Positions 5,270 through 31,395 of a stretch of DNA of 32,000 nt are shown one piece after another. The first letter of the stretch is position 1; every line of letters begins with the position of its first letter. The DNA comes from Thermococcus camini (GTDB lineage: Archaea; Methanobacteriota_B; Thermococci; Thermococcales; Thermococcaceae): contig NZ_LR881183.1 of assembly GCF_904067545.1 (NCBI RefSeq), forward strand, positions 406,277-438,276, written 5' to 3'. The notes beneath the pieces were generated by a model. That model searched no databases, had not been told where the DNA came from, and saw only the letters and a program-made list of their open reading frames with translations. A program made the translations under genes and the position numbers.

Positions 5270-6415
5270 ATGATGGTAAGCTCAGGCTTTAGGGCAACCC
5301 TCCTCAAGCTCGGTCTGCCAGAGGACAGGCTGGCGGTTCTTGAGGGCAAGGGTGGAGTTGTGGAGGGGGAATTCAAGGGCATAAGATACGTCCGCTTTCG
5401 GGATTCCGCCAAAGGGTTCCGGCGCGGAACGGTTGTATTTGAGAACGGCGATGTTGTTCTGGGCTTCCCCCACATAAAGCGTATCGTCCAGCTGGAGAAG
5501 GGGGTAAAAAGGATCTTCAAAAACAGACCCTTCTACGTTGAGGAGAAGGTGGACGGCTACAACGTCCGCGTCGTGAAGGTGATGGACAGGGTTCTCGCTC
5601 TAACGAGGGGCGGCTTTATCTGTCCCTTCACGACGGAGAGGATACTGGACTTCATCAACGATGAGTTCTTCAAAGATTACCCCAACCTTGTCCTGGCCGG
5701 TGAGATGGCCGGGCCCGAAAGCCCGTACATCGTCGAGGGGCCGCCCTACGTGAAGGAGGACATAGAGTTCTTCCTCTTTGACATCCAGGAGAAGGGAACG
5801 GGAAGGAGCCTTCCTGTGGAGGAGAGGCTTAAGCTTGCCGAGGAGTACGGCATTCGTCACGTTGAAACTTTTGGCCTCTACGACCGCTCGAAGATTGAGG
5901 AGTTGCATGAGTTAATCGAAAGGCTGGGCAGGGAGAGGAGAGAGGGCATCGTTATGAAAACGCCCGATATGAAGAAAATCGCGAAGTATGTAACGCCGTA
6001 CGCCAACATCAACGACGTCAGGATAGGCTCGCACATATTCTTCGACCTGCCCCACGGCTACTTCATGGGGAGAATTAAGCGCCTCGCTTTCTACCTGGCC
6101 GAAAAGCACATCAAAGGCGAGGAGTTCGATGAGTACGCGAAGGCCCTCGGAAAGGCCCTCCTCCGGCCGTTCGTTGAGAGCATCCACGAGGTCGCCAACG
6201 GCGGCGAGGTCGAGGAGGTCTTTACGGTGAGGGTGAAGAGCATAAGCACCGCCCATAAAATGGTGACTCACTTCGAGAGGCTCGGTGTGAAGATCCACAT
6301 CGAGGACATAGAGGATCTGGGCAACGGCTACTGGAGGATAACATTCAAGAGGGTCTATCCCGATGCAACGCGCGAGATGAGGGAGCTGTGGAACGGCAGG
6401 GCGTTTGTGGATTGA
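5270..6415 (+). CDS. ATP-dependent RNA ligase, Pab1020/Rnl3 family (archaeal RNA-circularising ligase)
   Basis: Collinear along its length with my memory of Pyrococcus abyssi Pab1020 (MVSS.F...LGL.E.R...LE.KGG.VE.EF.G.RY.R..DSA...RRGTVVF). Nucleotidyltransferase motif I is EEKVDGYNVR (Lys codon 5546-5548). The C-terminus is ...ELWNGRAFVD. The start is probably the second ATG (5273). Confidence 0.9.
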   Translation: MMVSSGFRATLLKLGLPEDRLAVLEGKGGVVEGEFKGIRYVRFRDSAKGFRRGTVVFENGDVVLGFPHIKRIVQLEKGVKRIFKNRPFYVEEKVDGYNVRVVKVMDRVLALTRGGFICPFTTERILDFINDEFFKDYPNLVLAGEMAGPESPYIVEGPPYVKEDIEFFLFDIQEKGTGRSLPVEERLKLAEEYGIRHVETFGLYDRSKIEELHELIERLGRERREGIVMKTPDMKKIAKYVTPYANINDVRIGSHIFFDLPHGYFMGRIKRLAFYLAEKHIKGEEFDEYAKALGKALLRPFVESIHEVANGGEVEEVFTVRVKSISTAHKMVTHFERLGVKIHIEDIEDLGNGYWRITFKRVYPDATREMRELWNGRAFVD

Positions 6416-6802
6416 AGCGGCAGATTTCATGAAAATTATTCTACCAATTTGGATGGATAAGTAAAATCGGGGGACTTTAACTTGCGCCCCCACAAGTTAC
6501 TTGCACCCCTGCAAGTTAAGAGGCTTTCCCCAACCTTTGCGAAAGCAAAGGTTGATCAAAAAGTCTTCGCCGTTAAAAGGGTATGGAAATGTTTGCATGC
6601 TATTTTAATGATGTGTGTTTTAATGGGTTTGTATCAAATTTCATCGATTTTGGGCGTGTTTTGCTCCAACTCAGCGCCCGAAGGGCGCCAAAAATGAAAA
6701 ACATGAGTAAGAACTGTCAAGATTAAGAATAAACCCGTGTAAAAATTAGGCTCATTTAAATGGCATGCCGTTTTCGATGAAACATTCCCCAGAAAAGTTT
6801 CT

Positions 6803-7139
6803 TAACGTGGGGCAAAGCCCACTTTGGGGGTTTGAGACTGCAGGGAACTTTGCCTGCGCAAAGTTTCATCAAAGTTTGTGATTCCCGTTGGGGCTCTTCT
6901 ACAAAGGGATTTCACTTCCAAACTTGCCCGTAAAAGGTTGAATTCTCTAAGATAAAACTTTTCCCACGTGGGTTCTACTTGAACCGCGCTCCAAAGGGGT
7001 GCAAAAACGCTTGAACCTTCCTGGAACGCATCCTTAGAATGAATTCATTCTGCCCAAAAAGAAGTCCTCAAAGAAATCCACTCCAGAACACGCTTTTCAA
7101 GAGGAATCACAACCTTGATCAAACGTCGCGCAGGCGAAC
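6803..7139 (+). repeat. Repeat unit A (~335 nt, diverged copy)
   Basis: Aligns end to end with unit B. Shared blocks are gtggggc.aagccc.actt.gggggtttgaga, caaagtttgtgatt, gggttctactt.aaccgcgctcc, aaaaacgcttgaacc, tcctt.gaatgaat.c and gaatcac.aaccttgatcaaac.tcgcg. Confidence 0.8.
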
Positions 7140-7432
7140 AAGCTTTTAAAAAAGCTTGACCAAAAAGCCTTAACTGCCTAGAAGCGAGGAGTTAGAAGTT
7201 GGTAGCTCTTCTTGAGGTCATGCTCTGAATACAGGGGGTTTCAAGTCAGGTGCCAATGTTTCAAGTGAGAACCAGTTTTGGGTTCCTTTGATGAGGGTTT
7301 AACTTGAAAAAGACGCCCGCAGGGCATCAAAAAGGCAAACCTAACCCAAGAGTGAATTTTAGGCAAGTTCTTTATGTTGAACGCTCCAGTAATGATAAAC
7401 CCCTTGAAAATCGGCACGTCCAAATGGGGCTA

Positions 7433-7500
7433 CAAATTTTGATGAAACTTTGCGCAAGCAAAGTTTCTGGGGGGTGTGGGGGCGTTAGCCCCCCAGTAGT
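7433..7500 (-). repeat. Partial inverted copy of the 5' module of the repeat unit
   Basis: The reverse complement reads ggggggc-taac-gccccc-acaccccccagaaactttgcttgcgcaaagtttcatcaaaatttg. This matches unit A 6845-6879 (ggaactttgcctgcgcaaagtttcatcaaagtttg) nearly base for base. Confidence 0.65.
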
Positions 7501-7513
7501 TTAGAGGAAAAGC

Positions 7514-7850
7514 GGGGTTGTGGGGCGAAGCCCCACTTCGGGGGTTTGAGAGTACAGAGCAAGCTTTAAGAAAGCTTGACCAAAAGTTTGTGATTTTTTG
7601 AGGTAGTGCCCTTAAAGAGGGATTCATTTCAAAATCAGCCATTAGGAAGTTGGATCCCTCGAACAGATTTTTTCACATGGGTTCTACTTCAACCGCGCTC
7701 CTTCGGAGCGCTAAAAACGCTTGAACCCTTCTGAAAAGTTTCCTTGGAATGAATCCAACACTCACAAGCAAATTCCAGAGAATCCACTTAGGAACACTCA
7801 TTACAGACAGAATCACCAACCTTGATCAAACTTCGCGAAGGCGAAGTTTG
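7514..7850 (+). repeat. Repeat unit B (~335 nt); its first 46 nt are repeated exactly, inverted, at 29735-29780
   Basis: See unit A. It starts with ggggttGTGGGGCgaaGCCCCACttcgggggtttgagagtacagag (7514-7559) and ends with the 10-bp hairpin caaacttcgc-GAAG-gcgaagtttg (7827-7850). Confidence 0.8.
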
Positions 7851-7900
7851 CTTTGCAAAAAATTTGTACACCTCCCAACCCAAAAAAGGGTGGAACGGTT

Positions 7901-7917
7901 CGAAAGCCTTTTAAATA
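7901..7917 (+). promoter_or_regulatory. BRE/TATA promoter (CGAAAGCC-TTTTAAATA) for the SPOUT-rpl3 ribosomal-protein operon
   Basis: TTTTAAATA at 7909-7917 lies ~55 nt upstream of ATG 7973. It is the only strong TATA-like box between the repeats and the first operon gene. Confidence 0.45.
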
Positions 7918-7972
7918 GTCTCCATAGACCCCACTTCAGCGTTAAAGTACCCACAGCAAAGGATGACGGAAA

Positions 7973-8743
7973 ATGGCCTGGCACATCTTCATTCCAGATT
8001 CGCTCCTTGAAGAGACCGACGACCCCAAAATCAGAACGTACAAGGTTGGGCAGATAGCCAGGGCCGCTGCAATCTTCGGCGTTGAGCACGTGTGGGTTTA
8101 CAGGGCCGGCGGCAGGGACGGAAGGTTCATCAAAACGATCCTTGAGTATGCGGAAACGCCCCAGTACCTCAGAAAGAGGCTGTTCCCCCTCATGCCGGAG
8201 CTCCGCTATGTTGGCGTCATCCCGCCGCTGAGGACTCCCCACCACAAGCTTAAGGGGAAACCGAGGGTCGGGGAGATCCGCGAGGGCTTCGCCTTTCGGA
8301 AAGGAAGGAGAACCTACGCGGACATCGGCCTCGACGACCTCGCCGCGGTGGAGGGGGACGTTGAGGGGCGCGCAACTTTCAGAATAGTCTCAGCAAGGCC
8401 TCTCAGAGTGATACCAGCGAAGCCAGAGGAATACTGGGGGTACAGGGTGCATCTCACGAGGAAGTCACTGGCAAAAACACTTAAAAAGGCCAGGCTGGAT
8501 TTGGCGATTGCCACCTCCCGGAGGGGGCGTGACATTCGAGAGGTGAAGCTTCCCCCGCTCGAGGGGGAGGTCGGATTCGCCTTTGGCTCACCGAGGAAGG
8601 GCGTGATGGAGCTCCTCGGCGAGGAGGAATATGACTTTGATCTAATCCTCAACACCATTCCAAATCAGCGGACGGCCACCGTCCGCACCGAGGAGGCCGT
8701 GTTGGCCACACTCGCTGTGTTTAATCTCATAAGGAGGGATTGA
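7973..8743 (+). CDS. Putative SPOUT-superfamily RNA methyltransferase (COG2106/DUF171 family), the usual gene preceding rpl3 in archaea
   Basis: 256 aa starting [43 protein letters not shown]..., with ...[27 protein letters not shown] at the C-terminus (trefoil-knot-like end). Its stop lies 1 nt before the rpl3 ATG. Confidence 0.7.
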
Positions 8744-8744
8744 G

Positions 8745-9788
8745 ATGGGAAAAATACACAGGCCAAGGAGAGGTTCACTGGCTTACTCCCCGAGAAAGAG
8801 GGCTAGGAGCGTAGTCCCAAGAATCAAGAAGTGGCCGAAGGACAGCGAAGTCAGGATGCTCGGTTTCGCCGGCTACAAGGCTGGTATGACCCACATCCTC
8901 ATGATAGACGACAGGCCAGGGCTCACCAAGGGGAAGGAGATCTTCATGCCGGTCACGATAGTCGAGGTCCCGCCGCTCTTCGTCTACGGCATCAGGGCCT
9001 ACAGGCAGGGCTACCTCGGTCTCGAGACCGCCACCGAGGTCTGGTTCCACGAGCTCAACGACCACGTCAAGAGGCGCATAAAGACCCTGCCAAAGAACTA
9101 CGACGAGGAGGCCTTCAAGGCTAGGCTTGCCCAGCTTGAGGAGCTTATCGAGGGCGGCGAGATAGTTGACGTCAGGCTTCTCGTCCACACCCAGCCGTGG
9201 CTCATCAAGCTCAAGAAGAAGCCGGAGGTCATGGAGTACGCCATCGGTGGCGACGACATCAGGGCCAAGTTCGACTACGCCAAGGAGAAGATAGGCAAGG
9301 ATCTCCGTGCGAGCGAGGTTCTCCACGAGGGTGAGCTCCTCGACATCATAGCCGTCACCAAGGGTAAGGGAACCCAGGGTCCGGTCAAGCGCTGGGGTGT
9401 CAAGATACAGTTCCACAAAGCCCAGAGGGCTGGCAAGGCCAGGCACATCGGTAACCTCGGTCCGTGGCACCCGACCAGGGTCATGTGGACCGTCCCCCTC
9501 GCGGGTCAGATGGGCTTCCACCACAGGACCGAGTTCAACAAGAGGCTCATTGCCATAGGTGAGAACGGTAAGCTCAAGCTCGGTGACAAGAAGGAGATAG
9601 AGATCACCCCGAAGGGCGGCTTCCCGCACTACGGTGTCATAAGGAGCGACTTCCTCATGATACAGGGCACCGTTCCGGGAGCCTTCAAGAGGATCATCAG
9701 GGTCAGGCCGGCTATAAGGGCGCCGAAGAAGAGGCCGCCGGTTGAGAGGCCGCAGATAACCTACGTCAGTAGGGAATCCAAGCAGTGA
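8745..9788 (+). CDS. rpl3: 50S ribosomal protein L3 (uL3)
   Basis: [20 protein letters not shown]...GYKAGMTHI...[15 protein letters not shown]...; position in the operon. Confidence 0.97.
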
Positions 9789-9798
9789 GGTGAGATAA

Positions 9799-10566
9799 AT
9801 GAAGGTTAAGGTTTTCAATCTCGAAGGCGAGCCTGTGGAGGAGATAGAGCTTCCGAAGGTCTTTGCCACCCCGTTCAGGCCCGACCTCATCAGGAGGGCT
9901 GTCATCGCCTCATGGACCCACAGGATACAGCCGCAGGGCAGGGATCCGCTCGCTGGAAAGAGAAGGGTCACCGAGAACATCGGAAAGGGCCACGGAATGG
10001 CAAGGGTTGAGAGGATAAAGACCTCCCCGAGGTTTGCCGCCTTCGTCCCCTTCGCGAGAGGTGGAAGGAGAACCCACCCGCCCAAGGTCGAGAAGGTCAT
10101 CTGGGAGGACATCAACAAGAAGGAGCGCAGGCTGGCCATAATGAGTGCCATCGCTGCAACCGCCAACTACGACCTCGTCAGGGCCAGGGGCCACATCGTT
10201 GACAACGTTCCGCAGGTTCCGATAGTCGTCACCGACGACCTCGAGAAGGTTTTCAAGACCGCCCAGACCCGGGAGATATTCAAGAAGCTCGGCGTCTGGG
10301 ATGACATCGAGAGGGCCAAGAAGAACACCAAGATAAGGGCCGGTAAGGGCAAGATGCGCGGAAGGAAGTACAAGAAGGCCAAGGGTCCGCTCGTCGTCGT
10401 TGCCAAGAACGAGGGAATCGTTCAGGGTGCCAGGAACCACCCGGGCGTTGACGTCGTCACCGTTGAGAACCTCGGCGTTGAGCTTCTCGCTCCGGGTACC
10501 CACCCGGGAAGGCTCACGGTCTGGACCAAGGGCGCCATAGAGAGGCTTAGGGAAATTTACGGGTGA
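9799..10566 (+). CDS. rpl4: 50S ribosomal protein L4 (uL4)
   Basis: [22 protein letters not shown]...[13 protein letters not shown]...; preceded by TGAGGTGAGATAAATG. Confidence 0.97.
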
Positions 10567-24121: not shown

Positions 24122-24373
24122 ATGCCAGCTATGGAAGTCGGAAGGCTTGCCGTTATAATCGCCGGAAGGAGGGCCGGAGAGAAGGTCGTCGTCGTTGACG
24201 TCATCGACAGGAACTTCGTCCTCGTTACCGGCGCTGGCCTCAACAAGGTCAAGCGCAGGAGGATGAACGTCAAGCACCTCGAGCCCCTTCCGGAGAAGGT
24301 CAGCATCGAGCGCGGCGCCGACGACGAGGCCGTCAAGGCCGCCCTCGAGCAGGCTGGAATCAGCCTTGAGTGA
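24122..24373 (+). CDS. rpl14e: 50S ribosomal protein L14e (eL14)
   Basis: [55 protein letters not shown]... (KOW-like). Confidence 0.95.
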
Positions 24374-24414
24374 TGCCCTTTTGTCTCTTTTTGATTCTCT
24401 TTTGTTCTCATTTG
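24374..24414 (+). terminator. Oligo-T terminator region after rpl14e (convergent junction with the NTPase gene)
   Basis: T4 (24379-24382), T5 (24388-24392), T4 (24400-24403) and T3 (24411-24413) on the + strand, consistent with archaeal oligo-T termination. The minus strand here is A-rich, so the NTPase gene has no equivalent signal. Confidence 0.45.
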
Positions 24415-27405
24415 TTAATACGTTAAGAAGAACATTTTAATTATAGAGTTCGTATCGATTTTATCATGTTTCATATTCTCGAAGATATTCTTAAGAAGAA
24501 TGGCACGGAGAATTTGGTCGTTTTTCTTATATTCCTTTATTGCTTTATAAATAACAACGGCGAGATCTGGATATGTGAGTTGTAGATAACTTCCTTTATA
24601 TAAATCTTCAATTTTATCTAATGCCATTGATGCGGCAATAAACTCCAAGACTATTTGAAAGTCGTGTTGACTTATTGGGACTGAATCTATAATTTGAAGA
24701 TAGGCTTCTTTGTATTTTCTCTCTAGTATATCCAGTAAAATGTGTATTTCGTTATATACAAAAGGAAATGTATCCCTTAAGATTAACTCTAGTTCTTTTA
24801 TGGAGTTCATAACACTTTTGGATATTTTAATGTTAAGTTTCAGTATCCTGTCTGAATAATATTTGACAAAAATTATCTCAGCAATTAGTGTCATTGTGTT
24901 CTCCGGAGGTAACATTAGTAGATATTCTTTAATTATTGGAGCGAATTCTATAAATTCTTTTACACTTTCATAGTTCAAACCATTTTTTATCACATTTATT
25001 CTCATGGAAAGATCATGCAATAATATCCAGTTTAATACTCTCTTTCCAGATGCGTTAAACTCTTTCTTCGAATATTTTAAAGCTAGAGATACATATTTTC
25101 TCGCTTCTTCGATATTTCCCAGAAACAGGAAAGCGAATGCAAGGGTGTAATAAGTTAGTCTAAAGCTACCAAAGATCCTCAATTCAAGCAATTGTTTTAT
25201 TCTTTTTTGTTTGTCTTCTTTGTTATCCCGTATGAAAACAGTGCTAAAGAGAGCGTTAACATCTTTGTCATTCTGTAGAAGTTCAAAATTGGCCTCTAAT
25301 TCATTTAAAAGTTTTTCAGCGTTCCTTAAAAATTGTATATTCTCTTTGGTAGCTTCACTGGTTAATGGTATAGGTGAGAAGGTAAATATCTCTCCAAGCT
25401 TGAGATACAGCTCCATCTTGGCATATTTATCAAACCATGTATCTCCTAAGATTCTTATGCTCTCTATCACTTGCTCTATTTTTCTGCTCATCATGTGCCT
25501 CTCTTTCTTCAAAAATGGGCTGTAGACCTTCTTTCTTATGGTGTTTACCTTAGTAGCTATTGTAAGAAACCTTACTATGTTATTGTCGGGTAACTCTTTG
25601 GTGAGTTCTCTTAAAATAGTGGAAATTTTATGATCTACTTCCTCAATAACATAGGGATTCAAAGCTGAACTATCACTATATTGCCATAAAAATGACAATA
25701 ATCTTAATTTGTCTTCTTGAGTTAGGGCAGAGACTCCACCTGTTTTTGAGAGTATATTAAATATAGCAATTGTAACTTCATATATGATTGGGGACTGACT
25801 ATTGGCTACTTGGATTCCTGCGTTTATTATCAATGTGAATGTAACTTCAAGTTCATAGTTATCTACTAATTCAAGAATTTTGAGAATACTAATTAATCCG
25901 TTCTCTGAGTATTCTGAAGTACTGTTTATAGCCTCTAGCATAAGATTTACAAACCTTGAAATCTCTGTTCGTATGGCATCATTCCTTATGAGATACGGTA
26001 TGAACGTTCTAAGATGAGAATATAGCTCAGTTAGATCGTATATCTCATCAACAATTTGTCTATCATGATCATTTAGTGAACCAACATATACATAGCCGTT
26101 AAGATGTACGATATCCTCGCTAAATATAAGATCTGTTAATTTATTTTTGCCCTGATCCCCATAAACTAGTCTCCCCAATATTTCTAGGATTGATTTTTCA
26201 AGAGGAGTCAGTAAAAGGGGTATTACTAGTTTGTTTCTCTTACTAAGCTCTTTATATATGAACTCGTTTGACTTAATCAGTCCCTTAAGATTATACATAA
26301 TCTGGTCCTGATTTTTGGATGCAACATCTAAGGGGTAATACACCCGATCTGCTTGAGGAAGGTTATCAAGGAGGTCATCAATGTTTACTTTGAGATTAGT
26401 GGATACTTTTGCGAGCATAACAGCAAACCCCGGGAGTCCCGAAGTAAGTGCTTTTAATTTTTCGCCATAGTTCGGATCTATATTAATTCCATTTGAGTGG
26501 ATAATATCTAAGAATTTTTTGCTATCAATAATCGGGCCGATGAATATGACTTGTTCCGAACTTTCAATGAGAGTGTGTTCACTAAGAATGCTTCTTACAT
26601 ACTCAGGAGAATTTAGGGTAAATTGTTTTCCCTCATTTGCTAACTTTTCTATGGGAATTCTGTTAACTATAATTACCCTACTTCCTAGATTTGAGAGTTC
26701 AGTAATTAATTTGGATAGCACATTTCGCTCGGATAGAGAGTAGTCCATATAGTCGTCGATTAAAAACACAAATTTTGAAGCTTTAGATTTTACTTTTGAA
26801 TCCTTGTAGGAGGTATATAGTTCTCTGCCTGTCTTCCATATGTTTCCTATTGCCGATATTCCTTCAAAAATTGTCATTCCAATTACTATAGACTGAGTTA
26901 TATCCAGGATTTTATCAAATGGCTCTTTCTCTATAATGGACTTTAGCTTAATTGAGATGTGCTGAAGATTCACGCCTCTTATCCCGATTATCTCTAGCAG
27001 AGTTTTTATTGAGTTGTCAACTGTGTTGACGTATTCCTCTATGTTTGAAACATTAGAGATGATATCCGTAATTTTTTCTAGAATTCCTTGAGAAGTGGCA
27101 GCCTCTACAACCTGCAAGACAAGAGACCTTTCGCTCTCAGAGATCATCTTGATTGGAACTAACGGCATGTAAAATGGATTTCCATGGTTATCAACAATCT
27201 TCTTTAATTGAGGTTGGGCAGAATAATGTCTGGGAGACAATATTATAGGTATATACCCTTCTTCTCTTGCCATTTTCATGGCTATATATCGTGCCAGAGT
27301 ACTCTTGCCACTTCCAGGTAATCCGAGTATCATGACTGGGTTTCCTTCTTTTAGTTGTTTCAGGATGTGTTCCTCTTTCCCAGTAACCACGTATCGTTGC
27401 ATCAT
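24415..27405 (-). CDS. 996-aa NB-ARC-like STAND P-loop NTPase with a long C-terminal helical (TPR-like) region; strongly AT-rich
   Basis: Motifs occur in NB-ARC order: Walker A GLPGSGKST (res 28-36, nt 27298-27324), Walker B FVFLIDDY (res 212-219, nt 26749-26772), GSRVIIVNR (res 241-249), VIFIGPIIDSKKFLDII, and SGLPGFAVMLA (res 322-332, GLPLA-like). About 650 aa of helical repeat-like sequence follows (e.g. YYTLAFAFLFLGNIEEARKYVSLALKY). Codons are overwhelmingly A/T-ending, unlike all neighbouring genes. Confidence 0.8.
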   Translation of the reverse strand: MMQRYVVTGKEEHILKQLKEGNPVMILGLPGSGKSTLARYIAMKMAREEGYIPIILSPRHYSAQPQLKKIVDNHGNPFYMPLVPIKMISESERSLVLQVVEAATSQGILEKITDIISNVSNIEEYVNTVDNSIKTLLEIIGIRGVNLQHISIKLKSIIEKEPFDKILDITQSIVIGMTIFEGISAIGNIWKTGRELYTSYKDSKVKSKASKFVFLIDDYMDYSLSERNVLSKLITELSNLGSRVIIVNRIPIEKLANEGKQFTLNSPEYVRSILSEHTLIESSEQVIFIGPIIDSKKFLDIIHSNGINIDPNYGEKLKALTSGLPGFAVMLAKVSTNLKVNIDDLLDNLPQADRVYYPLDVASKNQDQIMYNLKGLIKSNEFIYKELSKRNKLVIPLLLTPLEKSILEILGRLVYGDQGKNKLTDLIFSEDIVHLNGYVYVGSLNDHDRQIVDEIYDLTELYSHLRTFIPYLIRNDAIRTEISRFVNLMLEAINSTSEYSENGLISILKILELVDNYELEVTFTLIINAGIQVANSQSPIIYEVTIAIFNILSKTGGVSALTQEDKLRLLSFLWQYSDSSALNPYVIEEVDHKISTILRELTKELPDNNIVRFLTIATKVNTIRKKVYSPFLKKERHMMSRKIEQVIESIRILGDTWFDKYAKMELYLKLGEIFTFSPIPLTSEATKENIQFLRNAEKLLNELEANFELLQNDKDVNALFSTVFIRDNKEDKQKRIKQLLELRIFGSFRLTYYTLAFAFLFLGNIEEARKYVSLALKYSKKEFNASGKRVLNWILLHDLSMRINVIKNGLNYESVKEFIEFAPIIKEYLLMLPPENTMTLIAEIIFVKYYSDRILKLNIKISKSVMNSIKELELILRDTFPFVYNEIHILLDILERKYKEAYLQIIDSVPISQHDFQIVLEFIAASMALDKIEDLYKGSYLQLTYPDLAVVIYKAIKEYKKNDQILRAILLKNIFENMKHDKIDTNSIIKMFFLTY

Positions 27406-27428
27406 ACTGGCTTACACTAGGTATGCGT

Positions 27429-27474
27429 AAGTTTAAATACTTTTTGTGTAGCTACCTAGTCAATATTTAAACTT
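27429..27474. promoter_or_regulatory. Divergent promoter/operator: inverted 11-nt TATA-containing arms AAGTTTAAATA / TATTTAAACTT centred on the palindrome GTAGCTAC
   Basis: The arms are at 27429-27439 and 27464-27474. The central GTAGCTAC at 27448-27455 shares their symmetry axis (27451/27452). The element lies between the NTPase start (27405, minus) and the SDR start (27502, plus). Confidence 0.5.
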
Positions 27475-27501
27475 GCTACTAAAATTATCGTGGGTGATAA
27501 A

Positions 27502-28209
27502 ATGAAAACCGCTCTCATTACGGGTGCCTCCGGTGGAATAGGCAGGCTTCTGGTGGAAGGGCTTGTTGAAAAAGGCTATCTGGTCGTGGGAGTCGGCAGG
27601 AGCAGGGAGCGGCTAGAGGGTCTCAAAGGCCTGGGGAACTTTGAGTACATTGTTGCGGATCTCCGAGACCGGAGCTCCCTCGAGAGGATAGCCGGACCTC
27701 TGCGTGAGCTGGGCGTTGACAAACTCGATCTGCTCATCAACAACGCTGGCTACGCTCTCAGAAAGCCCCTCTTGGAGCACTCACATCAGGAGCTGGAGAA
27801 CCTGTTCAGGGTAAACGTTTTTGCACCCCTTGAACTCACGAAAACACTACTTCCAGTGCTCCCAAAGGGTTCGACTGTGGTGTTCATAATCAGCGGCGTC
27901 GCGTTCATTAACGTTCCTGAATTGCCCTCCTACTGTGCCGCCAAGGGTACGCTCCATTATTTGGTGATAAACCTTGAGAGGGAGCTTTCTGTGAAAGGAG
28001 TTCACGTTATGCGCGTCTATCCCAAACATGTCAAGACCGGATTCTGGAACGGAAAGGTTCCGAAGGGCTCGATAGAGCCGGAAGATGTTGCACGGGCAGT
28101 GTTCAAGGGGCTCGAAAAGGGTAAGAGAGAGGTCTTTGTGCCGGGCTACCTGAAACTCGTCAAATATCTCCCCAACTGGCCGGTCTTTACCTACAGATTC
28201 AGGTATTAG
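27502..28209 (+). CDS. Short-chain dehydrogenase/reductase (classical SDR)
   Basis: MKTALITGASGGIGR (TGxxxGxG), NNAG, and catalytic YCAAK (YxxxK). G/C-ending host-like codon usage. ATG follows GGGTGAT. Confidence 0.88.
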   Translation: MKTALITGASGGIGRLLVEGLVEKGYLVVGVGRSRERLEGLKGLGNFEYIVADLRDRSSLERIAGPLRELGVDKLDLLINNAGYALRKPLLEHSHQELENLFRVNVFAPLELTKTLLPVLPKGSTVVFIISGVAFINVPELPSYCAAKGTLHYLVINLERELSVKGVHVMRVYPKHVKTGFWNGKVPKGSIEPEDVARAVFKGLEKGKREVFVPGYLKLVKYLPNWPVFTYRFRY

Positions 28210-28257: not shown

Positions 28258-28479
28258 ATGGAGCTTCATGCGGTCATATGGGAGGAAGAGGGAACATACA
28301 TAATCAGAGAGGTTTTTACGGGAGTCACAACGCAGGGGGAGACCCTGGAGGAGGCTATTGAAAATCTAAAGGAGGCCGTTGAGCTTTACCTTGAGGAATT
28401 TCCTGAGCTGAGGGAGGAACTGGAAAAAATCAAGTTTGTGGGCGATTTCAATGTCCAGATTGCCAAGGCTCTCGGGTGA
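28258..28479 (+). CDS. hicB: HicB-like antitoxin (UPF0150/HicB N-terminal domain only, 73 aa)
   Basis: MELHAVIWEEEGTYIIREVFTGVTTQGETLEEAIENLKEAVELYLEE... matches the HicB/UPF0150 pattern (a beta-rich start followed by the GxTxEEAxxNxxEAxxxxxE helix). Paired and overlapping with a HicA-like ORF. Confidence 0.75.
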   Translation: MELHAVIWEEEGTYIIREVFTGVTTQGETLEEAIENLKEAVELYLEEFPELREELEKIKFVGDFNVQIAKALG

Positions 28480-28690
28480 GCAAGTTATTAAAGTCCTCGT
28501 CAAAAAGTTCGGTTTTGAGGTATCCAGACAGAGAGGAAGCCATGTGGTTCTGGTTAAGTATAAAGACGGCAGGAAGATAGGAACCGTTGTTCCCCTTCAT
28601 AAAGAGTTAAAAGCGGGAACACTTATGGGTGTTCTAAAACTGACTGGAATCGAAAAAGATGAATTTATGGAAGCTTTGAATGATCCCTAG
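28451..28690 (+). CDS. hicA: HicA-like mRNA-interferase toxin (YcfA/HicA family, 79 aa)
   Basis: MSRLPRLSGEQVIKVLVKKFGFEVSRQRGSHVVLVKYKDGRKIGTVVPLHKELKAGTLMGVLKLTGIEKDEF. It has the conserved ...G.....RQ.GSH..L... core and ends ...PxHxxELKxGTLxxIL. ATG 28451 lies within the track ORF 28436..28690. Confidence 0.78.
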   Translation: MSRLPRLSGEQVIKVLVKKFGFEVSRQRGSHVVLVKYKDGRKIGTVVPLHKELKAGTLMGVLKLTGIEKDEFMEALNDP

Positions 28691-28699
28691 GTGATGCTC

Positions 28700-29704
28700 A
28701 TGGCGAGGGACGAAGTGAGGAGAATCCTTCCGGCTGACGTAAAGCGAGAGGTTCTGGTTAAGGACGAGAAAGCTGAAACTAACCCAAAGTGGGGCTTTCC
28801 ACCCGAGAAGAGGCCAATGGAGATGCACATGCAGTTTGGCATAATCAACCTCGACAAGCCGCCTGGGCCGACGAGCCACGAGGTCGTTGCCTGGATCAAA
28901 AGGCTCTTCGACCTGAACAAGGCCGGCCACGGCGGAACCCTCGACCCCAAGGTCAGCGGTGTTCTGCCGGTTGCCCTTGAGAGGGCAACTAGGGTCGTCC
29001 AGGCCCTTTTGCCTGCGGGAAAGGAGTACGTCGCGTTGATGCACCTCCATGGGGACGTTCCAGAGGATAGGATTAGAGCGGTTATGAGGGAGTTTGAAGG
29101 GGAGATAATCCAGAGGCCGCCCCTGAGGAGCGCGGTCAAGAGAAGGCTCAGGACGAGAAAGGTTTACTACATTGAGATACTGGAGATAGAGGGCAAGGAC
29201 GTGCTCTTCCGCGTTGGAGTTGAGGCGGGAACCTACATAAGGTCGCTCATCCACCACATCGGTCTTGCCTTGGGTGTCGGTGCCCACATGGCCGAGCTGA
29301 GGAGAACGAGGAGCGGCCCCTTCAAAGAGGATGAAACTCTGGTGACCCTTCACGACCTCATTGACTACTACCACTTCTGGAAGGACGATGGTATCGAGGA
29401 GTACTTCCGCAAGGCAATACAGCCGATGGAGAGGGCCGTTGAACACCTGCCGAAGGTCTGGATTAGAGATTCGGCCGTTGCGGCGGTAACCTACGGCGCC
29501 GACCTTGCCGTTCCGGGAATAGTCAAGGTTCACAAGGGCATCAAGAGGGGCGACCTCGTTGCGGTCATGACTCTCAAGGACGAGCTGGTGGCACTCGGTA
29601 AGGCCACGATGGCGAGCGGGGAGATGCTCCAGAAGGGCAAGGGGATAGCGGTTGATGTTGACAAGGTCTTCATGCCGAGGGACTGGTACCCGAGGCTCTG
29701 GTAA
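28700..29704 (+). CDS. cbf5: tRNA/rRNA pseudouridine synthase Cbf5 (H/ACA RNP catalytic subunit, TruB family)
   Basis: MARDEVRRILPADVKREVLVKDEKAETNPKWGFPPEKRPMEMHMQFGIINLDKPPGPTSHEVVAWIK...GHGGTLDPKVSGVLPV (catalytic Asp)...PUA domain...MPRDWYPRLW. From memory this is near-identical to Pyrococcus furiosus Cbf5. The track ORF begins at GTG 28691. Confidence 0.96.
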   Translation: MARDEVRRILPADVKREVLVKDEKAETNPKWGFPPEKRPMEMHMQFGIINLDKPPGPTSHEVVAWIKRLFDLNKAGHGGTLDPKVSGVLPVALERATRVVQALLPAGKEYVALMHLHGDVPEDRIRAVMREFEGEIIQRPPLRSAVKRRLRTRKVYYIEILEIEGKDVLFRVGVEAGTYIRSLIHHIGLALGVGAHMAELRRTRSGPFKEDETLVTLHDLIDYYHFWKDDGIEEYFRKAIQPMERAVEHLPKVWIRDSAVAAVTYGADLAVPGIVKVHKGIKRGDLVAVMTLKDELVALGKATMASGEMLQKGKGIAVDVDKVFMPRDWYPRLW

Positions 29705-29982: not shown

Positions 29983-30174
29983 ATGGAAGGCTGGGCTAAG
30001 AAGGTTGGTGCGGTGTTGTTGCTCGCCATGCTGTTGAGTCTTCAGTTGATTGCCGCTCCACAGGCCGCGGCAATGACTGCCAACAATGCTAGTATAACCT
30101 TCAGGAGGGCTGTGGTTGCCTGGTACGATGACAAGGGCAGGCTTGAGATGAACGTGACGTGGATTAAAAGGTAG
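29983..30174 (+). CDS. Signal-peptide-bearing N-terminal part (63 codons) of a secreted glycoprotein; probably one gene with 30174..30872, interrupted at an A4 run
   Basis: MEGWAKKVGAVLLLAMLLSLQLIAAPQAAA|MTANNASITF...NVTWIKR*. The signal peptide has an AxA-like cleavage motif, and there are two N-x-S/T sequons. A strong SD lies 8 nt upstream. Confidence 0.6.
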   Translation: MEGWAKKVGAVLLLAMLLSLQLIAAPQAAAMTANNASITFRRAVVAWYDDKGRLEMNVTWIKR

Positions 30175-30872
30175 TGAACTTCACAAACCTGACGAAGGGC
30201 TGTCCGCTTTATCACACCAATGTAACGCCGAAGGTGAACGTTTCCGTGGTCACGCTTTACAACATGACGGAAAAGCACGAGCAAATGCTCTTTTTCAGGC
30301 TGAACTTCTACAATAGCACGTTCAACTATACCATGTACGCGCTCGTTTATCGCGCCGAGAGGAGCCAGTACAACTTCACTCTCGTTACGAGGATATTCAC
30401 CGACCCTAAGACTGGTGCTTATAAGGCTTACCTGACTGGAATGAACATTGCCCCAAATGATGAAAACAAGGTCGTTCCCGTTGGAGATACGATTATAACT
30501 AAGGACAACCTCACGCTTTCAGAATACTACTGGACTCTGAACAAGGTTCTCATGAAGCTCCGCAGGGGCGATGAGACGAACTGGGTCTGGGGCAGGAGTG
30601 CCTACGAGCTGAGGCACTTGTCACACCTAGTGAGGCTAAAACTACCAGAATACAACCAGGGGAAAGCAGTAGGAATGACAGTGGCTATGGATAGTGCAGG
30701 AGAACTAGCCTGCGATGTTATATGTCATTTGCTTATTGCAGGGGGAGTATGGGCGTGTTGCGCACTTTATCCTCCAGCGTGTCCAGTATGCATATTGGTC
30801 TATGAAGTCTTGGAGACTGGTCAATTAACATACGTATTTTGTTATGAGACCTGTGAAAGACTAGTGGGGTAG
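30174..30872 (+). CDS. Sequon-rich extracellular protein body with a Cys-rich hydrophobic C-terminal module (no signal peptide of its own)
   Basis: (V)NFTNLTKGCPLYHTNVTPKVNVSVVTLYNMTEKHEQ...FYNSTFNYT...YNFTLV...DNLTLS contains nine N-x-S/T sequons. The last 56 aa hold 8 Cys (ELACDVICHLLIAGGVWACCALYPPACPVCILVYEVLETGQLTYVFCYETCERLVG). The GTG start overlaps the TAG of the upstream ORF. Inserting one A at 30166-30169 fuses the two frames (..WIKKVVNFTNLT..). Confidence 0.6.
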   Translation: MNFTNLTKGCPLYHTNVTPKVNVSVVTLYNMTEKHEQMLFFRLNFYNSTFNYTMYALVYRAERSQYNFTLVTRIFTDPKTGAYKAYLTGMNIAPNDENKVVPVGDTIITKDNLTLSEYYWTLNKVLMKLRRGDETNWVWGRSAYELRHLSHLVRLKLPEYNQGKAVGMTVAMDSAGELACDVICHLLIAGGVWACCALYPPACPVCILVYEVLETGQLTYVFCYETCERLVG

Positions 30873-30888
30873 TTGGAGGTGGTGACCA

Positions 30889-31395
30889 ATGAAGGGCCAG
30901 ATTTTATATTCTCTTTTTTTACTCGCTATTGGAGTGGGAGTGCTTAACATCTTCGTGCCCTTGAGGGAGATGAATTACCTGACACTGGTAATTCTAATCT
31001 CGCTTCTCTTCCTCCGTGCAGTGCTTCCCAAACGGTTCGAAAACAGAACCATAACCTTTCTGTGGAATCTTTCAGTAATATTCATGATGGGCTCTTTAAT
31101 TTACCCGTACAATGAGCACCTCGCGTACTCTTACTTTGCCGGTGCGGGTGTGGTTGCAACATTCTACGCTTTTGCTGACAGGCTGTTCTACTATGCGCCC
31201 CAGATAACGTACTTCTGGATCGGCCTTGCAATAGGCTTTGTCTTATCACTTACAGTCTTTAGAGACGATGTTCGGGGCAATACTGGATTATTTCTCCTCC
31301 TTACGTTGGGATTTGGCCTTGCAACGCTCCTCATGGGAAAACTCGTTAGCTACAGGCCATTTTCTAAAAGATTTGATGGTGAAAACATTGAATAG
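30889..31395 (+). CDS. Hypothetical integral membrane protein (about 5 TM segments)
   Basis: 168 aa with hydrophobic helices throughout (ILYSLFLLAIGVGVLNIFV, LTLVILISLLFLRAVL, ITFLWNLSVIFMMGSLIY, AGAGVVATFYAF, YFWIGLAIGFVLSLTVF, GLFLLLTLGFGLATLLMG). GGAGGTGG SD is followed by ccaATG. Confidence 0.65.
   Translation: MKGQILYSLFLLAIGVGVLNIFVPLREMNYLTLVILISLLFLRAVLPKRFENRTITFLWNLSVIFMMGSLIYPYNEHLAYSYFAGAGVVATFYAFADRLFYYAPQITYFWIGLAIGFVLSLTVFRDDVRGNTGLFLLLTLGFGLATLLMGKLVSYRPFSKRFDGENIE

Follow-up and report, generated by a model that had tools for sequence, protein, structure and literature searches.

What is the function of the single AT-rich gene that lies between a ribosomal-protein operon and cbf5 in the hyperthermophile Thermococcus camini, and why does it keep so unusual a composition? 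The gene is located in a 32,000-nucleotide stretch of contig NZ_LR881183.1 (positions 406,277 to 438,276), which is referred to below as the window and to which all coordinates apply unless another locus is named. Its product carries the NCBI name 'nSTAND3 domain-containing NTPase [Thermococcus camini]'. We estimate a probability of roughly 55% that this protein is a single-gene, Avs-like immune pattern-recognition sensor, a reading favored by its architecture, the defence genes next to some of its homologues, its location in an accessory-gene hot spot, and its polymorphism. To our knowledge, antiviral STAND/NLR-like sensors have hardly been studied in archaea, and none has been studied in a hyperthermophile; the bacterial ones are well described.

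The protein is a STAND NTPase, as a first-pass annotation of this DNA had proposed. In an alignment of 11 family members (the window protein and ten longer relatives), invariant or near-invariant columns were found at G28, G33, K34, D217, D218, R249, Q285, F298, N305, G323, and A328. All of the motifs quoted in that annotation occurred in the order given and coincided with such columns (Table 1), and the GxP motif fell within lid helices 311-347 of the AlphaFold (AF2) model. The Pfam profile nSTAND3 (PF20720) scored 33.5 bits against a cutoff of 27.2, covering profile positions 1-51, and was the best Pfam family in all 11 members; when residues 60-205 were deleted, the match rose to 37.7 bits and covered positions 1-93. 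In contrast, the NB-ARC profile (PF00931) scored 12.2 bits (E 0.1) on residues 14-46, that is, on the P-loop only, and at best 15.7 bits with the insert deleted, both below its cutoff of 23.5. The motif series therefore aligned to a STAND profile above threshold and to NB-ARC below it, and the label "NB-ARC-like" had to be given up in favor of nSTAND3. The modeled lid and winged helix agree with the STAND assignment. NCBIfam returned only generic P-loop matches far below their cutoffs, and all P-loop profile matches centered on the Walker A motif.

Several other assignments of the core were rejected. The ORC-CDC6-like profile matched nothing but the P-loop, with E 0.02 and a score of about 14 bits (cutoff 27), which argues against membership of the Orc1/Cdc6 initiators; the structural resemblance to Orc1/Cdc6 described below reflects a shared AAA+ plus winged-helix plan. 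In KAP NTPases, the two Walker motifs are expected to be separated by two or four transmembrane helices, whereas a single hydrophobic helix is present here, and KAP_NTPase was not among the best 25 of the 27 Pfam families matched at E<=10. Searches of the PDB with the sequence and with the family profile returned only P-loop (SRP54/Ffh, ArsA) and TPR (LGN) matches and did not resolve the family.

The AF2 models, which were built from shallow family alignments, reached a mean predicted local distance difference test (pLDDT) of 73.6 and a predicted template modeling score (pTM) of 0.65 at full length, and 77.2 and 0.83, respectively, for residues 1-480. They displayed a P-loop domain, a four-helix lid (helices 295-347), and a helical domain that includes a wing hairpin; about 26 further helices make up the rest of the chain to the C-terminus. 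The first-pass annotation overlooked the distance of about 180 residues between Walker A and Walker B, which results from a beta-hairpin and a helical insert (approximately residues 60-206) within the NTPase domain; in NB-ARC proteins, this spacing is roughly 70-80 residues. The insert ends in a conserved hydrophobic helix (residues ~165-190) and a disordered linker, with pLDDT below 50 at residues 187-207. This helix is hydrophobic in every member, with Kyte-Doolittle 19-residue means of 1.36-2.3 at the equivalent position and 1.39, under the usual 1.6 cutoff, in the window protein. Its first half was modeled confidently (block mean pLDDT 90 for residues 171-180 in the N-terminal model). A role of the helix as a transmembrane effector was downgraded because it is a single segment between the halves of one cytosolic domain, has a hydropathy of only 1.39, and has a confident first half; for the same reasons, it may simply be a core helix that precedes the Walker B strand. 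The winged-helix-like domain contains an invariant Y456 and, in most members of the alignment, a histidine at 464 that may be analogous to the MHD motif.

The long helical, TPR-like tail claimed from the first inspection was borne out by the models, in which residues 476-996 were entirely helical and gave Foldseek matches to TPR structures (LGN/Pins at probability 1.0, and also Ctr9 and PPR10). A sub-threshold TPR_2 match lay at residues 751-779; TPR models of Pfam were below threshold in the window protein and clearer in one relative (P0014). Within residues 480-996, only L490, A768, P834, and a C-terminal K-h-[FY]-[FY] motif were conserved, the remaining conserved residues being in the NOD (nucleotide-binding oligomerization domain). 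This sparse conservation fits a putative binding surface rather than an enzyme. The C-terminal family motif, in full K-[LM]-[FY]-[FY]-x-x-h, is encoded at 24418-24438. Proteasome docking of the HbYX type by this motif was rejected, because the penultimate residue was never Tyr in the aligned C-termini.

When the full-length model was compared with the PDB using Foldseek, Avs3 (8dgc) was the best match (E 6.6e-4), followed by SAMD9 and RdrA. The N-terminal half matched Orc1/Cdc6, RdrA, MalT (probability 1.0), RFC, and DnaA, all of which have the AAA+ core in common. The matches to Orc1/Cdc6, MalT, RFC, and DnaA extended over 390-550 alignment columns at probabilities of 0.9-1.0, and those to MalT and Orc/Cdc6 covered the NTPase core, the lid, and the winged helix. 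These two proteins provided the best structural matches to residues 1-480 (8bob_C for MalT, with a best TMq of 0.34, and 2qby_A for Orc1/Cdc6, both at probability 1.0) and share the lid and winged helix with the model. Unlike MalT, however, the window protein has no LuxR-type DNA-binding domain. Unlike Orc1/Cdc6, it shows no association with an origin, and its sensor-1 Arg and GxP motif are features of STAND proteins, not of Orc/Cdc6. Comparison with viral structures by Foldseek yielded nothing meaningful.

No effector domain was detected in Pfam, NCBIfam, PADLOC, or PDB searches, and only 27 residues precede the P-loop, in agreement with the earlier statement that an N-terminal effector is missing. 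This sets the protein apart from its nearest known counterparts. STAND sensors with TPR-like tails form a large known class in prokaryotes, with at least 90 families associated with defence (PMC13581612). The effectors of these families include nucleases, proteases, NADases, and others, and their deletion abolishes activity (PMC13581612). The window protein resembles Avs1-4 and these approximately 90 families in its plan of NOD plus TPR-like sensor, its horizontal mobility, and its patchy distribution, but it has no detectable effector. In bacteria, nSTAND3 serves as the NTPase module of Avs5 (AVAST type 5), an antiviral protein with the plan SIR2-nSTAND3-TPR. The two have in common an nSTAND3-type module, a long C-terminal sensor of alpha-helical repeats, and a single-gene organization. 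In contrast to Avs5, the window protein has neither SIR2 nor any other N-terminal effector, contains a 150-residue beta-hairpin plus helical insert between Walker A and Walker B, matches no PADLOC Avs model, and belongs to a family whose assignable members are archaeal rather than bacterial. With the NB-ARC proteins (Apaf-1, plant R proteins, and CED-4), it shares a P-loop, an hhhhDD motif, a strand ending in Arg, GLPxA, and a winged helix in the same order; the Walker A to Walker B distance and the sub-threshold profile match given above separate it from them. Judged from profiles, motifs, and models, the protein is not an NB-ARC protein, Avs5, a component of MADS, or a KAP NTPase. STAND proteins with TPR-like sensors are known as a class, and the nSTAND3 label of this protein already exists. 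What is new is the combination of the missing effector domain, the insert in the nucleotide-binding domain, the tiny family known so far only from archaea, and a dimorphic, recombining, persistently AT-rich locus beside the ribosomal-protein operon in a hyperthermophile.

The gene is not an orphan, as had first been supposed, but belongs to a small archaeal family with four close and about ten distant relatives. When 1.84 billion cluster representatives were searched exhaustively with HMMER, 14 proteins were retrieved at E<=1e-3, and only two clusters reached E<=1e-30. Among 5.8 billion proteins, a word-indexed search detected four (the query, an 84%-identical protein of Thermococcus sp., and two metagenomic proteins at 36-37%), and its repetition with the family profile added no further members. 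The distant full-length relatives have 915-1083 residues and share 17-21% identity. Apart from one that belongs to a Methanosarcinales archaeon, they come from contigs without an assignment, of which at least one stems from a hydrothermal-vent metagenome. The locus of one distant relative also encodes a DUF22 protein. By these searches, the family appears to be tiny, and archaeal where members can be assigned.

No partner gene was conserved across the six contexts examined, implying that the protein probably works by itself or together with the products of genes located elsewhere. Defence genes were found near two of the distant homologues. A split Type IIG restriction-modification enzyme (PADLOC E 3e-206) is encoded on the same strand 35 bp upstream of the Methanosarcinales homologue, which is surrounded by toxin-antitoxin genes. 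Another homologue adjoins an OLD/GajA-like (Gabija-like) nuclease (E 2e-68) and an Mrr_cat-TPR protein, and a third adjoins a transposase fragment. In the window, the neighbors of the STAND gene are the genes for ribosomal protein L14e and a short-chain dehydrogenase (SDR), followed by hicBA and cbf5.

All four Thermococcus copies of the STAND gene occupy the same site, convergent with L14e, the last gene of a ribosomal-protein/SecY/adk/cmk operon, and divergent from the SDR gene. A scan for L14e with one genome per species yielded 12 Thermococcus loci, 10 of which were informative, and none of these ten contained the STAND gene. In five of them (L008, L009, L011, L012, and L014), cbf5 directly followed L14e, an adjacency that was also present in one Bathyarchaeia and one Methanobacterium locus. 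Three others carried hicB-hicA and then cbf5, and two (L005 and L006) carried the SDR gene directly after L14e, followed in one case by hicA and cbf5 and interrupted in the other by the end of the contig inside SDR. Because the loci variously contain nothing, hicBA, SDR, or the STAND gene at this position, the L14e-cbf5 junction is a hot spot for accessory genes, among which the STAND gene is the rarest. Thus, the gene is syntenic wherever it occurs in Thermococcus, but it is far from universal in the genus: even the closest sampled host to T. camini (L005; synonymous divergence, dS, 0.43 for cmk and 0.11 for L14e) does not have it. The junction sequences showed no target-site duplication and no integrase or tRNA signature.

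Several contigs end at or near this junction. Two contigs from Thermococcus metagenome-assembled genomes (L015 and L016, ends ~10190-10206) break inside or right after L14e, and two of the contigs with the STAND gene (L003 and L004) break just past it. This suggests that assembly is difficult at the junction, perhaps owing to strain heterogeneity or to the shift in composition, and the gene may be underestimated in metagenome-assembled genomes.

The four Thermococcus copies fall into two allele types, a picture drawn from these four loci. Type A comprises the window and L001 (83% amino-acid identity, dS 0.43), and type B comprises L003 and L004 (79% identity, dS 0.74). Between the types, the proteins are 38% and the DNA approximately 50% identical, and synonymous sites are saturated. 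This divergence ends abruptly at the L14e stop codon, where identity is 90-95%, and about 100 nucleotides inside the 5' end of the STAND gene. The block containing codons 1-20 and the promoter paired differently from the gene body, the window going with L004 (91%) and L001 with L003 (96%). Each of the four possible pairings of 5' type with body type is thus represented, and this requires that recombination took place in the conserved stretch coding for the P-loop, near codons 20-40. The SecY dS among the four hosts is 1.2-2.0, so that the hosts are roughly equidistant, and for the same-type pairs it is 1.27 and 1.81, compared with allele dS values of 0.43 and 0.74. The lower divergence of the alleles suggests transfer of the gene between species, although the extreme codon bias distorts dS. 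Together with its absence from the ten loci, this marks the gene as accessory and laterally exchanged, in line with the horizontal acquisition proposed earlier.

Between the two type A alleles, the ratio of nonsynonymous to synonymous divergence (dN/dS) was 0.21, and between the two type B alleles it was 0.15; by domain it ranged from 0.11 to 0.27, with slightly higher values in the solenoid than in the winged helix. Intact STAND open reading frames (ORFs) were present in five assemblies. By these two results, the gene is real, functional, and under purifying selection. The type A allele of Thermococcus sp. GCA_027023865 carries a frameshift near codon 961 (L001 7948-8055, L002 3383-3490) that places the conserved C-terminal 36 residues in another frame; it is probably real, since an independent assembly (Logan SRR7968105) has the same sequence. 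Beside one type B allele, the SDR gene (L003 1-206, reverse) shows an apparent frameshift or truncation after its GxxGxxG motif, reading MRTALVTGATGGIGKH... and then a stop, and homologous sequence continues in another frame. This defect could be due to pseudogenization or to an assembly error at the contig end.

The compositional island reported in the first-pass annotation was confirmed. The STAND gene has a GC content of 0.341 and a GC content at third codon positions (GC3) of 0.329, compared with GC3 values of 0.72-0.85 in the neighboring L30, L15, SecY, adk, L34e, cmk, L14e, and Cbf5 genes and 0.62 in the SDR gene. The use of "almost exclusively" A- or T-ending codons was overstated, as these make up 67% of the gene. 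In 500-nucleotide segments, GC was 0.30-0.38 within the gene, ~0.53-0.61 upstream, and 0.48-0.56 downstream; the drop coincides exactly with the ORF, giving the sharp edges described previously at both spacers. All four copies have GC of 0.32-0.35 and GC3 of 0.29-0.33. Since this low GC is kept despite saturated divergence, it cannot be attributed simply to a recent import that has not yet ameliorated. The composition also shapes the amino-acid make-up of the protein: the charged-minus-polar index was 3.9 in the window protein and 3.9-5.9 among the Thermococcus copies, compared with 13-23 for soluble neighbors and 12-26 for the distant homologues. The IVYWREL content (47%) was within the range of the neighbors.

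The spacers at the two edges were read for signals. The left spacer had been proposed as a convergent terminator. It contains oligo-T signals for the L14e operon on the plus strand (24379-82, 24388-92, and 24400-03); however, no T-run occurs on the minus strand, which is that of the STAND gene, so that by sequence it is not a bidirectional terminator. In the loci lacking the STAND gene, a GAGGCCTTCTGGCCTC hairpin takes the place of this spacer. The proposed divergent promoter on the right was supported by two TATA-like boxes, one per gene: TTTAAATA at 27432-27439 (TATTTAAA on the strand of the gene) for the STAND gene and TATTTAAA at 27464-27471 for the SDR gene. As the former lies only 26 nucleotides upstream of the ATG, the STAND mRNA is probably leaderless, with a predicted start near 27405. 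A short inverted repeat, CTTAC-N11-GTAAG, was present at 27406-27440 in all four loci, in the conserved block between this box and the ATG; it might serve as an operator that overlaps the start of transcription. A mechanical ORF call placed the SDR start at GTG 27490; ATG 27502 is the likelier start, because homologues begin with MKTALITG or MRTALVTG and a GGTGAT Shine-Dalgarno motif (27493-27498) lies 4 nucleotides upstream.

We infer a role in defence from the architecture, the neighbors of two distant homologues, and the pattern of polymorphism, and the hicBA pair in the same slot of the window points in the same direction. By analogy with Avs proteins and NLRs, the resting state would be an ADP-bound monomer. 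The solenoid would bind a protein of a virus or plasmid, and exchange of ADP for ATP would then drive oligomerization through the NOD. As the most plausible output, the oligomer might recruit or sequester another protein, either one that is encoded elsewhere or one that belongs to the invader; second, the output might reside in the insert or in the poorly modeled C-terminal 140 residues; and third, and least likely, it might be perturbation of the membrane by the hydrophobic helix of the insert.

A number of results weigh against this proposal. None of the family members has a known defence phenotype, ligand, or output, and no PADLOC Avs model was matched by any of the 11 members; the window protein matched only the generic ATPase model mad8. 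The nSTAND3 match is confined mainly to the stretch from the P-loop to Walker B, and the Foldseek E-values are marginal (~1e-3) with low TM-scores. At least one homologue is located among housekeeping genes, gene-wide dN/dS revealed no diversifying selection, and the two allele types were defined on four loci only. Searches of viral contigs and of phage and plasmid records yielded no relative, leaving carriage on a mobile element unsupported.

A bolder variant, which we consider unlikely as a whole, is that the protein is an effector-free archaeal NLR-like receptor whose output is built into the NOD (hairpin plus insert with its conserved hydrophobic helix) or the C-terminal 140 residues, with ancient trans-species recombining alleles kept at the hot spot next to the ribosomal-protein genes and an actively preserved AT-richness. 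In such a receptor, the oligomer would, for example, perturb the membrane or trap a protein of the invader.

The protein might instead be a non-immune, MalT-like STAND regulator that responds to a metabolite or protein by regulating transcription, for example that of the divergent SDR gene. The rank of MalT among the N-terminal structural matches, the promoter block shared with SDR and conserved in all four Thermococcus loci, and selection that is purifying rather than diversifying would suit such a regulator. However, no DNA-binding domain is present beyond the winged helix of the NOD, SDR has its own promoter in L005 and L006 where the STAND gene is absent, and the distant homologues have no SDR neighbor. 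Presence or absence in close relatives and alleles of 38% identity would also be unusual for a metabolic regulator, and we regard this explanation as improbable.

A poor candidate, in our judgment, is an ATPase subunit of a multi-gene system with partners elsewhere, such as methylation-linked defence of the MADS, BREX, or restriction-modification type. The sole PADLOC match of the window protein was indeed mad8 (PDLC04140; E 1.2e-9, residues 16-252, profile positions 22-235 of 314), this model matched 10 of the 11 family members, and the Methanosarcinales homologue directly follows a Type IIG enzyme. In our reading, the mad8 match reflects a similar ATPase core. Mad8 has been described as HerA-like, and its operon comprises eight genes, among them those for a methyltransferase and a kinase, whereas the model shows a STAND-type lid and winged helix. 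The mad1-8 operon (N6-methyltransferase, specificity subunit, kinase) was not found in the window or in L001, L003, or L004, no methyltransferase, kinase, or nuclease gene adjoins the STAND gene in the Thermococcus loci, and the linkage to restriction-modification occurs in one lineage only.

We consider it very improbable that the gene is an allorecognition or addiction-type locus comparable to the fungal NLR het genes, in which the alleles would mark incompatible lineages rather than detect viruses. Such a locus would be expected to show what is seen here, namely two deeply diverged alleles that share a chromosomal site in different species, breakpoints of recombination at the flanks, and polymorphism for presence or absence, but the same pattern is typical of defence hot spots, and only four loci were sampled. 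We also know of no evidence for incompatibility linked to cell fusion in Thermococcus, which counts against it. Finally, a decaying or functionless foreign insert, a mere compositional relic, is hardly credible: the strongly atypical composition, the mesophile-like charged-minus-polar index, and the L001/L002 frameshift that replaces the last 36 residues would fit, but the ORF is intact and full-length in four species-level backgrounds, dN/dS is low in every domain, the promoter block is conserved, and the IVYWREL content is like that of the neighboring genes.

If the protein is a conventional sensor with a partner elsewhere, it is an ordinary addition to a large known class. As a single-gene family without an effector, it poses the question of how a protein made of NOD and sensor yields an output alone. 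Related Thermococcus with allele A, allele B, or no gene at one site provide a natural experiment, and the genetically tractable T. kodakarensis makes a defence function, ligand specificity, and the role of the insert testable. The maintenance of GC3 of ~0.3 in a genome of GC3 ~0.75 across saturated alleles bears on how foreign or defence genes of archaea keep their composition.

Table 1. Features of the STAND gene, its product, and the surrounding L14e-cbf5 region (window coordinates).
Feature	Position	Strand	Basis
STAND gene, 996-aa ORF, ATG start	24415..27405	minus	ORF call and identity to database protein
Walker A / P-loop GLPGSGKST, aa 28-36	27298..27324	minus	G28, G33, and K34 invariant in family
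Family-specific beta-hairpin after strand 2, aa 66-85	27151..27210	minus	AF2 strands 66-71 and 77-85; conserved D72, G75, P84
Helical insert in NTPase domain, aa 88-206	26788..27144	minus	AF2 helices 90-202
Walker B FVFLIDDY, aa 212-219	26749..26772	minus	D217 invariant, D218 at least 90% conserved; AF2 strand 212-216
Sensor-1 strand GSRVIIVNR, aa 241-249	26659..26685	minus	R249 invariant (11/11); ends AF2 strand 243-249
GxP motif SGLPGFAVMLA in helical lid, aa 322-332	26410..26442	minus	Consensus SxGLPxLA; G323 near-invariant, A328 invariant
Winged-helix-like domain, aa ~351-475	25981..26355	minus	AF2 N-terminal model; wing hairpin 438-458
All-alpha TPR-like solenoid, ~520 aa, aa 476-996, putative ligand sensor	24418..25980	minus	~26 helices; pLDDT 80-92 for aa 480-860
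T-rich spacer, left junction of island	24374..24414	plus	Oligo-T termination signals of L14e operon
Divergent intergenic region with two archaeal TATA-like boxes	27406..27501	.	Sequence; conserved in 4/4 STAND-bearing loci
Ribosomal protein L14e gene, conserved left flank	24122..24373	plus	tblastn, 80-98% identity in 12 Thermococcus loci
Short-chain dehydrogenase (SDR) gene	27502..28209	plus	Pfam adh_short, 1e-36
hicB-like gene	28258-28479	plus	ORF; DUF7387/HicB_lk_antitox
hicA toxin gene	28436-28690	plus	ORF; Pfam HicA_toxin, 6e-15
cbf5 (pseudouridine synthase), conserved right flank	28691..29704	plus	tblastn, 87-93% identity

Two other regions of the window were noted. Between the ORFs at 5270-6415 and 7973-8743, and upstream of the ribosomal-protein operon that starts at 8745, about 1.5 kb (6480-7970; GC 0.43-0.45) contains no ORF of at least 110 residues. 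Two units of approximately 250 nucleotides (6809-7047 and 7523-7757), about 710 nucleotides apart and ~80% identical, are located there. A palindromic 22-mer (AACTTTGCGCAAGCAAAGTTTC-like) occurs four times in the same stretch, which also contains GC-rich hairpins whose loops are of the UUCG type. Rfam matched nothing in the window, and nothing in 6480-7970 even at E<=1; the repeats may be unannotated structured RNAs or repeated regulatory elements.

Downstream of cbf5, at 30174-31395, two ORFs of lower GC (0.48 and 0.44) had no Pfam match. One of these ORFs encodes a 232-residue protein rich in N-x-S/T sequons, and the other encodes a 168-residue protein that is largely hydrophobic by eye and is maybe a membrane protein. 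In L001, different, unannotated genes are located downstream of cbf5, and this region may be a second variable region flanking cbf5.

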